A DNA stretch of 64,000 bases from Trichormus sp. ATA11-4-KO1 (GCA_019358915.1 JAHHIM010000014.1:37574-101573); one strand, 5' to 3'. Shown: positions 43,630-45,655, counted from the first letter of the stretch. Translations and numbers: made by a program. Notes: generated from the sequence alone by a model not told the origin.

Positions 43630-44124
43630 CTACCTCCCCATTACACCATTTCTCCACCGATTTATGGCTCCTAAATATGCAACAACTGGAATTTGATAAA
43701 CCTCAACAAAAATCCACACAATAATTGATAAATGTGACAAAAAAGTGAGTATTGTCCAGATATATGGTATCCACGTAATGGGAGTATTGGCCATAGGGGG
43801 AAAATAATAAGCTACTATACCAATCAAAATGGTGGGAAGCACTACAAAAGTAATTGCTGCTAGCCCATAACCCCAGCCTAATTCAACGCCCTCTAACTGG
43901 GCTTCTGTCCAGTTAAAGCCATTCCAGCGCCAAATCAAGGGAGGTTGCCGAGAAGGCATCTTGATTTGTTGTTGTTCTAGGTTAACAGTAAAAATCTCAT
44001 GGCAGAAGTCACAAGCCATAGTCTCCATCATTGGCATATGAGAAATCTTACCTATCCGACAAACTGGGCAGGGGTAAACTCCTTGAAAGTCGAAAGACGT
44101 GGTTAAGAGTTTAGAACTGGGCAT
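43630..44124 (-). CDS. Conserved hypothetical protein (CxxC zinc motifs + 2 TM)
   Basis: CPVC...CDFC, two hydrophobic helices. Confidence 0.7.
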   Translation of the reverse strand: MPSSKLLTTSFDFQGVYPCPVCRIGKISHMPMMETMACDFCHEIFTVNLEQQQIKMPSRQPPLIWRWNGFNWTEAQLEGVELGWGYGLAAITFVVLPTILIGIVAYYFPPMANTPITWIPYIWTILTFLSHLSIIVWIFVEVYQIPVVAYLGAINRWRNGVMGR

Positions 44125-44377: not shown

Positions 44378-44406
44378 TTGACGCTGCCGACACCTTCTGT
44401 TAATGT
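44378..44406 (+). promoter_or_regulatory. Sigma70-type promoter of the DAHP synthase leader
   Basis: TTGACG-N17-TAATGT with an extended -10 TG. Confidence 0.65.
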
Positions 44407-44453
44407 GACCTTATTAAAGATGTACATTCAAGTTCTAACTTAACGCCCCACAA

Positions 44454-44510
44454 ATGTTCAGCAGCAATCACTACTTTTATTTTTGGTTTCAGGCGGTTCA
44501 CTGGGAGTGA
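44454..44510 (+). CDS. Leader peptide 1 (MFSSNHYFYFWFQAVHWE)
   Basis: 18-codon uORF with six consecutive aromatic codons; its 3' end overlaps an antiterminator arm. Confidence 0.82.
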   Translation: MFSSNHYFYFWFQAVHWE

Positions 44511-44574
44511 ATCAAGTTTCCTGATGGAAACCGCCCAGTGAACCGCAGAGCAAACTCTGCGGTTTTTGTGTTTT
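44493..44574 (+). terminator. Attenuator 1: antiterminator plus intrinsic terminator
   Basis: GCGGTTCACTGGG (44493-505) pairs perfectly with CCCAGTGAACCGC (44534-546). That arm overlaps the terminator AACCGCAGAG-CAAA-CTCTGCGGTT (44541-564), which is followed by TTTGTGTTTT. Confidence 0.85.
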
Positions 44575-44592
44575 AAGGAGCAGCCTTTCATC

Positions 44593-44658
44593 ATGATGAC
44601 CTATTCCAGTAGCTGGTTTTATGGCTTTTACTTTTGGCCCAGAGCAAGTTCCGGGTGA
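44593..44658 (+). CDS. Leader peptide 2 (MMTYSSSWFYGFYFWPRASSG)
   Basis: 21-codon uORF, SD AAGGAG at 44575-80, 7 aromatic codons within WFYGFYFW. Confidence 0.85.
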   Translation: MMTYSSSWFYGFYFWPRASSG

Positions 44659-44716
44659 GTAGTGTCATGCTGATGAATCAGAACACGCCCGGAACTCAAA
44701 GGTTTCGGGCTTTTTT
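44647..44716 (+). terminator. Attenuator 2: antiterminator plus intrinsic terminator
   Basis: AGTTCCGGGTG (44647-57) pairs with CGCCCGGAACT (44686-96). That arm overlaps the terminator GCCCGGAACT-CAAA-GGTTTCGGGC (44687-710), which is followed by TTTTTT. Confidence 0.87.
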
Positions 44717-44782
44717 AATGGGAGTGAGGGAGTGAGGGAAATAACTAATGACCAATGACCAATTTTTCAGGAGAATCAAACC

Positions 44783-45655
44783 ATGATTAACGCCAAACTA
44801 GCTGCACAATCTCATTCTGACCACCAAACAATTGTGAAACTTTCCGAAACAGTCGCTTTCGGTGGTAAAGAACTGGTAGTTATCGGTGGTCCCTGCACAG
44901 TGGAAAGTTTAGAGCAAATGGAAACAGTCGCCCAAACCTTAGCTGCTGCACCTGTGCAGGCTTTGCGTGGCGGTGTCTACAAGCCCCGCACTTCTCCCTA
45001 CGCCTTTCAAGGAATGGGAGAGGAAGGATTGGCAGTTTTAGCAAAAGTGCGATCGCGCTACAATATCCCAGTTGTCACTGAGGTAATGTCAATTTCTCAA
45101 ATTGCAGTAGTCGCTGCTCATGCTGATATGCTTCAGGTTGGTAGCCGCAATATGCAAAACTTCGACTTACTCAAAGCTTTGGGACAAGCTGGCAAGCCCA
45201 TACTACTTAAACGTGGTTTAGCAGCGACAATTGAAGAATTCGTCATGGCAGCCGAATATATACTCAGCCACGGTAATGCTGATGTGGTACTGTGCGAACG
45301 GGGTATCCGCAGCTTTGATAATTACACCCGCAATGTTTTGGATTTAGGGGCGGTGGCTGCACTCAAGCAAATCACTCACTTACCCGTGATTGTAGATCCT
45401 TCCCATGCAGTAGGTAAACGAGAACTTGTTACACCTATGGCCAAGGCTGCTATCGCTTGTGGGGCAGATGGGTTAATTATTGAGTGTCACCCAGAACCTG
45501 AAAAATCCGTTTCTGACGCACGTCAAGCACTTTGTTTAGAAGATATGGTTAATTTGGTTGATAGTTTAAAGCCCATAGCAGCAGCTGTGGGGCGGAGTAT
45601 ATGGGAAGCAACAGGGGCGGATTTGAAATCCGCCCCTGTTTTTTGTGCGGCTTAA
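44783..45655 (+). CDS. aroF: 3-deoxy-7-phosphoheptulonate (DAHP) synthase, class I-beta, catalytic domain only
   Basis: GGPCTVES, RGGVYKPRTSPYAFQG, QVGSRNMQNF, LKRG, CERGIR, DPSH, ECHPEP, SDARQ; SD AGGAG at 44769. Confidence 0.93.
   Translation: MINAKLAAQSHSDHQTIVKLSETVAFGGKELVVIGGPCTVESLEQMETVAQTLAAAPVQALRGGVYKPRTSPYAFQGMGEEGLAVLAKVRSRYNIPVVTEVMSISQIAVVAAHADMLQVGSRNMQNFDLLKALGQAGKPILLKRGLAATIEEFVMAAEYILSHGNADVVLCERGIRSFDNYTRNVLDLGAVAALKQITHLPVIVDPSHAVGKRELVTPMAKAAIACGADGLIIECHPEPEKSVSDARQALCLEDMVNLVDSLKPIAAAVGRSIWEATGADLKSAPVFCAA
45610..45644 (+). terminator. Terminator-like hairpin inside the 3' end of aroF
   Basis: AACAGGGGCGGATTT-G-AAATCCGCCCCTGTT followed by TTTT, upstream of the stop at 45653-55. 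Confidence 0.65.

Follow-up and report, generated by a model that had tools for sequence, protein, structure and literature searches.

Attenuation by leader peptides upstream of aroF and attenuators arranged in tandem are both known from other phyla, where the accessible literature describes them separately. In Corynebacterium glutamicum, aroF is preceded by aroR, a single leader with an F-Y-F motif (Neshat et al. 2014, as summarised in PMC11802643), and in Acholeplasma a Phe leader upstream of aroF, uORFC-13-1, has been predicted (PMC8632094). For cyanobacteria, the available text of PMC4833913, published in 2016 by a group surveying attenuators, states that there are no reliable data on attenuation. 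A search of the literature, mostly of papers accessible without subscription, found no cyanobacterial leader-peptide attenuator, and the available parts of PMC6596454, PMC13613805, PMC1173090 and PMC10895346 contain no such element. The absence of a cyanobacterial precedent, tentatively suggested in the initial annotation of the locus described here, survived this search, in agreement with PMC4833913.

The locus lies in a window of 64,000 nucleotides from Trichormus sp. ATA11-4-KO1 (GCA_019358915.1 JAHHIM010000014.1:37574-101573; the window is the whole stretch that was analysed, with positions counted from its first letter). Upstream of a DAHP synthase gene, aroF, two leader ORFs are each followed by an antiterminator and an intrinsic terminator (Table 1). 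Judged from sequence and predicted structure, these are very probably two classical ribosome-mediated transcription attenuators in series, controlling a DAHP synthase without feedback domain.

Table 1. Coordinates of the features at the aroF locus of the window.
Feature	Coordinates	Strand	Description and basis
Divergent ORF	43630..44124	-	164 aa; CxxC motifs, predicted membrane segments
Sigma-70-type promoter	44378..44406	+	TTGACG 44378-83, N17, TAATGT 44401-06; extended −10 TG at 44398-99; base-by-base check and conservation
Leader ORF 1	44454..44510	+	18 aa, no Shine-Dalgarno; control codons Y7 F8 Y9 F10 W11, F12 marginal (44472-44489)
Antiterminator 1	44493..44546	+	44493-505 with 44534-546, 13/13 Watson-Crick pairs; encloses inner hairpin 44516-531
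Module 1 protector / candidate pause hairpin	44495..44513	+	across stop codon of leader 1; RNAalifold consensus
Intrinsic terminator 1 and U-tract	44541..44573	+	stem 44541-50/44555-64, 10/10 Watson-Crick pairs
Shine-Dalgarno of leader 2	44576..44581	+	AAGGAG, immediately 3' of U-tract 1
Leader ORF 2	44593..44658	+	21 aa; control codons W8 F9 Y10 and F12 Y13 F14 W15 (44614-44637)
Antiterminator 2	44647..44696	+	44647-657 with 44686-696, 11 pairs, one G-U
Intrinsic terminator 2 and U6	44687..44716	+	stem 44687-96/44701-10, 10 pairs, two G-U, then T6
Shine-Dalgarno of aroF	44769..44773	+	AGGAG
aroF	44783..45655	+	type I-beta DAHP synthase, 290 aa; TIGR01361 above cut-off
Terminator-like hairpin	45611..45644	+	perfect 13 bp and T6, within last aroF codons; z −5.3

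A base-by-base check confirmed the promoter and the coordinates and translations of both leader ORFs as first annotated. The coordinates and lengths of the four stems also stood, with the refinement that both stems of module 2 contain G-U pairs. The initial annotation had correctly given module 1 an antiterminator and a terminator, but it was incomplete, having missed the hairpin across the stop codon, which is part of the consensus fold and may act as a pause element, and the hairpin enclosed by the antiterminator. It had further stated that antiterminator 1 excludes terminator 1. The two do overlap and compete, but the overlap is only 6 nt and the inner 7 pairs of antiterminator 1 are compatible with terminator 1. 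The alternative states of module 1 are predicted to be nearly iso-energetic (−38.1 versus −37.0 kcal/mol).

The fold z-scores of the four stems were −6.8, −4.5, −4.8 and −4.9. Two such leader ORFs were found in none of 5000 dinucleotide shuffles of positions 44378-44782, and one in 4 of 5000. Across the genome (5.97 Mb), 86 short ORFs contain at least five aromatic residues in six codons; a terminator lies downstream of only two of these, leaders 1 and 2. A search with the Rfam covariance models, the Trp and Phe leaders and the T-box included, assigned the region to no family and gave only unrelated matches at chance level (E 2.7 and 3.3). As a generic promoter scan returned 0 sites at the locus, the promoter call rests on conservation instead: the pattern TTGAC[AGT]-N17/18-TANNNT was present within 110 nt of the leader 1 start at 75 of 79 loci (72 with the TG), whereas none of 553 aroF coding windows taken as a control matched it. 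The divergent 164-aa ORF has no Pfam or NCBIfam match; a homologue also lies upstream of the locus in genome G147.

To assess conservation, the best 80 of 564 confirmed orthologue candidates, hence the closest relatives, were compared. Both modules were present at 78 of the 80 loci (three of these were found by a manual pattern, the regular expression having missed them), and the two loci without modules have just 47 and 102 nt of upstream DNA. Named hosts include Nostoc, Scytonema, Calothrix, Microcoleus, Coleofasciculus and Hydrococcus, with Nostoc punctiforme NIES-2108 (L030) and Microcoleus vaginatus FACHB-2002 (L076) among the strains that have the locus. At the control positions, an aromatic residue was found in 443 of 462 cells for module 1 (77 distinct sequences) and in 519 of 525 cells for module 2 (75 distinct sequences). 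The control codons show swaps between Phe, Tyr and Trp and TAT/TAC synonymy, and the N-terminal leader codons drift. Among the distinct sequences, 75 of 77 for module 1 have their stop codon 8 codons downstream of Trp, and 69 of 75 for module 2 have it 7 codons downstream of the last Trp; in module 2 the stop itself varies (58 TAA, 14 TAG, 3 TGA). The start codon of leader 1 is ATG in 77 of 78 copies and GTG in one; leader 2 has no ATG, GTG or TTG start in two of 78 copies and has lost its usual stop in one. A 4-mer resembling a Shine-Dalgarno sequence precedes leader 1 in 0 of 79 sequences and leader 2 in 51 of 79.

Codons for Phe, Tyr and Trp all occur within each single leader in 79 of 79 sequences, in line with the initial proposal of a double attenuator reading the three aromatic tRNAs. 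The AND-like control that had been proposed with it does not follow, for both gates have the same input. By their codon content, one input is read twice, rather than an AND of different signals being formed.

Every control codon begins with U, and Phe is encoded by TTT in 385 of 395 control cells. In aroF the share is 108 of 394, and it is 75% in the long ORFs of the genome, in which tRNA-Phe(GAA) is the only tRNA-Phe. This codon usage could suit a module that mainly reports how fast U-starting codons are decoded, for instance through A37 tRNA modification or global translation stress, and not aromatic supply; MiaA has been linked to Trp attenuation in Pseudomonas in the available part of PMC13434334. 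Non-aromatic U-starting codons, however, almost never substitute at the control positions, and the regulated gene encodes the entry enzyme of the aromatic pathway, with chorismate mutase next to it or fused to it in deep-branching relatives, which makes a sensor of decoding speed very improbable compared with a sensor of aromatic aminoacyl-tRNAs. A NusG pause motif was also considered as a cause of the TTT bias and rejected: the available text of PMC10895346 does not support it, and TTNTTT is present in just 31 of 75 module 2 blocks.

The initial annotation had named an alignment of orthologues as a check. Besides the conserved aromatic codons, this alignment yielded compensatory changes in the stems of module 1. 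Antiterminator 1 is paired in 91.8% of cells, with four pairs changed on both sides; its covariation score was reached by 0 of 500 shuffles, a count that overstates the significance, as do all shuffle counts for covariation given here, because the aligned sequences are related. The covarying pairs are AU63/GC16, GC59/CG15 and CG70/UA4. The protector and terminator of module 1 are paired in 95.7% and 95.3% of cells. Covariation did not extend to antiterminator 2 (85.8% paired, with a nearly invariant core), for which the score was not above shuffles (115 of 500). The helix of terminator 2 is 94.9% paired with three pairs changed on both sides, and the protector proposed for module 2 is weakly conserved (69% paired). 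Each RNA model, one per module, has one strong match in the genome, and the models do not find each other's module there. When HMMs of the 3' parts of the modules were matched across, 8 and 13 of the 79 sequences were hit, at up to 7.4 bits, and no shuffled ones; this similarity is suggestive of a common origin of modules 1 and 2.

The residues following the aromatic block look conserved as well, with VHRE-like and PRxSSG-like tails, and F-Y-F-W is common to both leaders. Such residues might belong to arrest peptides. TnaC represents a family of regulators of this kind, and here a nascent peptide together with a free aromatic amino acid or a pathway metabolite would stall the ribosome, the RNA switch reading the stall. 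The conservation expected of an arrest peptide, at the level of residues and with free synonymous change, was not found: the tail is fixed as nucleotides (Val is GTT in 77 of 77 and Gly is GGG in 69 of 71), which points to RNA pairing and not to an arrest peptide, and His is swapped with Arg alongside a compensating base change in the paired stem. A stall, moreover, predicts read-through, and induction by an end product has the wrong sign for a biosynthetic gene. Little probability is thus left to arrest peptides, and attenuation by the decoding of aromatic codons is retained.

The geometry of the switch was evaluated by folding the transcript as it would be just before the 3' arm of the terminator emerges, with the RNA masked up to 13 nt from the P site; the ribosome is reported to cover 12-15 nt from the P site (PMC3641672, section 11). 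In both modules, as long as the A site had not moved beyond the last Trp codon, 79 of 79 sequences were predicted to form the antiterminator. In module 1 it was formed in 0 of 79 once the A site was one codon past this Trp, and in module 2 the flip came when the A site was two to three codons past the last Trp (antiterminator in 77 sequences at +2 and in one at +3). Footprints of +11 to +17 moved the switching edge by about one codon, and with +17 Trp11 of module 1 fell outside the sensing region. The classical layout of ribosome-mediated attenuation, put forward in the initial annotation, thus holds at the level of sequence, conservation and masked folding.

At full-length equilibrium with a stalled ribosome, the terminator was still favoured in 23-45 of the 79 sequences for module 1 and in 47-57 of the 79 for module 2; module 2 of the window itself switched cleanly, from 0.0 to 1.0. 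Since equilibrium often favours the terminator, the switch must be kinetic or partial and the antiterminator would need kinetic trapping. The idea that naked module 1 defaults to the antiterminator was partly true only and was dropped, 29 of 79 sequences favouring the terminator at equilibrium. The preference for the terminator hairpin in many orthologues would also fit hairpins with a post-transcriptional role, in RNA processing or stability or in masking the ribosome-binding site of aroF, rather than terminators. In the photosystem-less relatives described below, the second U-tract is weak in several cases, and in some of these the second hairpin lies close to the aroF Shine-Dalgarno sequence. 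Both stems of the window, on the other hand, have U-tracts, whose conservation extends across A1 and A2; about 58 nt separate the end of terminator 2 from the aroF Shine-Dalgarno sequence, and the spacing between leader 2 and aroF ranges from 72 to 661 nt. A post-transcriptional role is accordingly judged highly unlikely, and the hairpins are treated as terminators in what follows.

The aroF protein aligns with positions 69-336 only of the 338 positions of NF006421, and its closest matches in the PDB are DAHP synthases of 262-276 residues. In profile searches, neither the N-terminal ferredoxin-like regulatory domain PF18152 nor a fused chorismate mutase was found in it. Domain PF18152 is presumably the mediator of feedback inhibition of DAHP synthase, and because it is missing, the aroF enzyme is probably insensitive to its products. 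The genome contains four members of PF00793. None of the three other DAHP synthase paralogues has such a leader upstream, and two of them (L081 and L083) carry the N-terminal domain. The domain-bearing paralogue L083 (G000:C36) adjoins a trpD-like ORF, and this region is perhaps the redundant trp/aro cluster treated in PMC1173090, as far as its available text goes. Paralogue L082 (G000:C12) is a DAHP synthase of another type, 347 aa in length.

The U-tract of the terminator-like hairpin at the end of aroF begins 14 nt upstream of the stop codon. A similar element at the 3' end was found in 32 of 81 aroF loci, and by its pattern it is single-copy in the source genome. It is possibly part of the control of aroF. 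Termination at this site would yield an mRNA without stop codon, so the element may depend on a trailing ribosome, or it may be a terminator through which the ORF grew.

A sample of 151 genomes from the phylum was screened for domain-less aroF, scored at an identity of at least 69%. The gene was found in 26 genomes and every one of these has at least one module: 24 have both, G038 has module 1 only and G089 module 2 only. Among the other 125 genomes, G050 alone has a module, a copy of module 1 that runs into an aroF fragment; nine weak matches to the module 2 model (E 2e-4 to 9e-4), mostly covering the terminator part, were left out of this count. In G050 (locus L105), a deletion joins module 1 to residues 46-104 of aroF, and the 3' arm of terminator 1, module 2 and the start of the gene are gone. 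In G147 (L088:1942-3129 and L160), the insertion of an IS605-type TnpB gene (PF01385, PF07282) separates module 1 from the 3' half of leader 2 and so breaks leader 2. Leader 1 of G139 (L101) has a premature TAA three codons past Trp, with intact stems. Natural versions with a single module, namely module 1 in L108/L141 (G038), L197 and L255 and module 2 in L137/L165 (G089), suggest that each module can work alone.

In metagenomes, the module 1 pattern was found in 102 stretches, of which 86 continue into aroF, 16 break off within 450 nt and none leads into another gene. Module 2 was present in 95 of these stretches and absent in three according to the script; four were too short. One viral match, located away from aroF, was taken as chance. 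In five deep-branching metagenome loci (L197:193-1377, L195, L199, L205 and L253), chorismate mutase (PF01817) follows aroF or is fused to its C-terminus. In L195, a diverged second ORF of 11 codons was seen by eye after terminator 1, where the script had missed it; besides codons for Phe, Trp and Tyr, this ORF has its own Shine-Dalgarno sequence.

One deep-branching metagenome aroF protein is identical to that of G245, a genome belonging to another class of the phylum. An aroF orthologue was found in 74 of 104 genomes of the family of G245. Among the best 30 loci of this family, 29 have module 1 and the remaining one has 41 nt of upstream sequence; a second aromatic ORF was present in all 29 (27, and two more). 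PsaA and PsaB gave no match in four genomes of this family type, 92-98% complete, and were matched in the source genome. By sequence, a photosystem-less class of the phylum thus has the module pair too. In a third class, 47 genomes yielded no module 1, and no leader was found upstream of 24 loci in other classes encoding N-terminally extended homologues. In a quick tree with many open forks, which cannot order events or exclude transfer between classes, these aroF proteins form one clade, apart from the domain-bearing paralogues of the genome.

Taken together, conservation, module 1 covariation, predicted folding and linkage to the gene strongly support ribosome-mediated attenuation by aromatic aminoacyl-tRNAs, and we infer translation of the leaders, termination in vivo and a response to amino acids as follows. 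RNA polymerase would start near 44413, as judged from the −10 box, and a ribosome would load on leader 1. With ample charged tRNA-Phe, tRNA-Tyr and tRNA-Trp, the ribosome would proceed past Trp11 and cover the 5' arm of antiterminator 1, upon which terminator 1 would form and the transcript would end near 44570. With any one of the three charged tRNAs in short supply, the ribosome would wait in the aromatic block, and the antiterminator would capture the 5' arm of the terminator before its 3' arm is free, letting the polymerase continue. Leader 2, with its own ribosome-binding site, would repeat the test with an end near 44716, and aroF would be reached only by transcripts that pass both gates. 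As each leader holds Phe, Tyr and Trp codons, a shortage of any one amino acid would open both gates. The output would approximate the product of two read-through probabilities, both driven by the same three tRNAs. Such a series design would keep the leak low and make the response steep. The isoenzyme under its control, an extra one, would normally be silent and be released on aromatic starvation.

This model requires coupling of transcription and translation. No match to Rho above the family cut-off was found in the source genome. In a crude count over 3102 long ORFs, 19 of 116 terminator stems lie no more than 12 nt from the stop codon; this spacing does not look like the short spacing of uncoupled B. 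subtilis, as described in the available part of PMC7858274, where the universality of coupling in bacteria is treated as debated. A conserved and precisely spaced attenuator would be a ready reporter for coupling between RNA polymerase and ribosome in cyanobacteria. The leader further offers a portable sensor of aromatic amino acids and, together with the domain-less aroF, bears on the flux into aromatic compounds in filamentous cyanobacteria. More tentatively, and with rather less chance of being right than not, the doubled attenuator may be an ancient device, shared by oxygenic cyanobacteria and the photosystem-less class, that stands in for allosteric control of DAHP synthase and squares one Phe/Tyr/Trp charging signal; gate 1, without Shine-Dalgarno sequence, would be near balance when untranslated, gate 2, led by one, would be off, and the hairpin at the 3' end of aroF would be a third coupling checkpoint. 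On this tentative reading, if true, the locus would provide the first direct proof that transcription and translation are functionally coupled in Rho-less cyanobacteria.

Among the systems described, E. coli trpL and pheL share with the modules a short ORF with cognate codons, an antiterminator competing with an intrinsic terminator and a ribosome footprint of about 12-15 nt from the P site (accessible parts of PMC11802643 and PMC3641672). Clustered end-product codons, an intrinsic terminator, a competing antiterminator and the stall geometry were all found in the sequence and predicted structure of the locus, the antiterminator with covariation in module 1 and by conservation only in module 2. 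The E. coli leaders each respond to one amino acid with one module and precede branch-specific operons, whereas here three amino acids and two modules are placed before the common first step, in a genome which, unlike the E. coli setting, has no Rho above the family cut-off.

The aroR-aroF arrangement of C. glutamicum likewise has a leader peptide with Phe and Tyr codons upstream of a DAHP synthase gene, in which stalling raises transcription, as is predicted here. That leader is a single module without Trp and with a reported response to Phe and not to Tyr, whereas each of the two modules here has Phe, Tyr and Trp codons; the C. glutamicum enzyme is feedback-inhibited and the present one has no regulatory domain, the two systems being compared by their description in the accessible literature. 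The Acholeplasma uORFC-13-1 resembles the locus in being a predicted uORF with an intrinsic terminator, exclusively upstream of aroF, but according to the available text it is a single, Phe-only leader, predicted from 24 sequences in another phylum. The literature searched contains no design in which two attenuators with intrinsic terminators follow one another and both read the three aromatic tRNAs. The mgtCBR leader of Salmonella also has two ORF-based attenuators, mgtM and mgtP, in one leader; as far as PMC3641672 could be consulted, these sense two different signals (ATP and proline), act additively and have no intrinsic terminators. Here, unlike mgtM and mgtP, codons for all three aromatic amino acids occur in both leaders, and each module closes with an intrinsic terminator.
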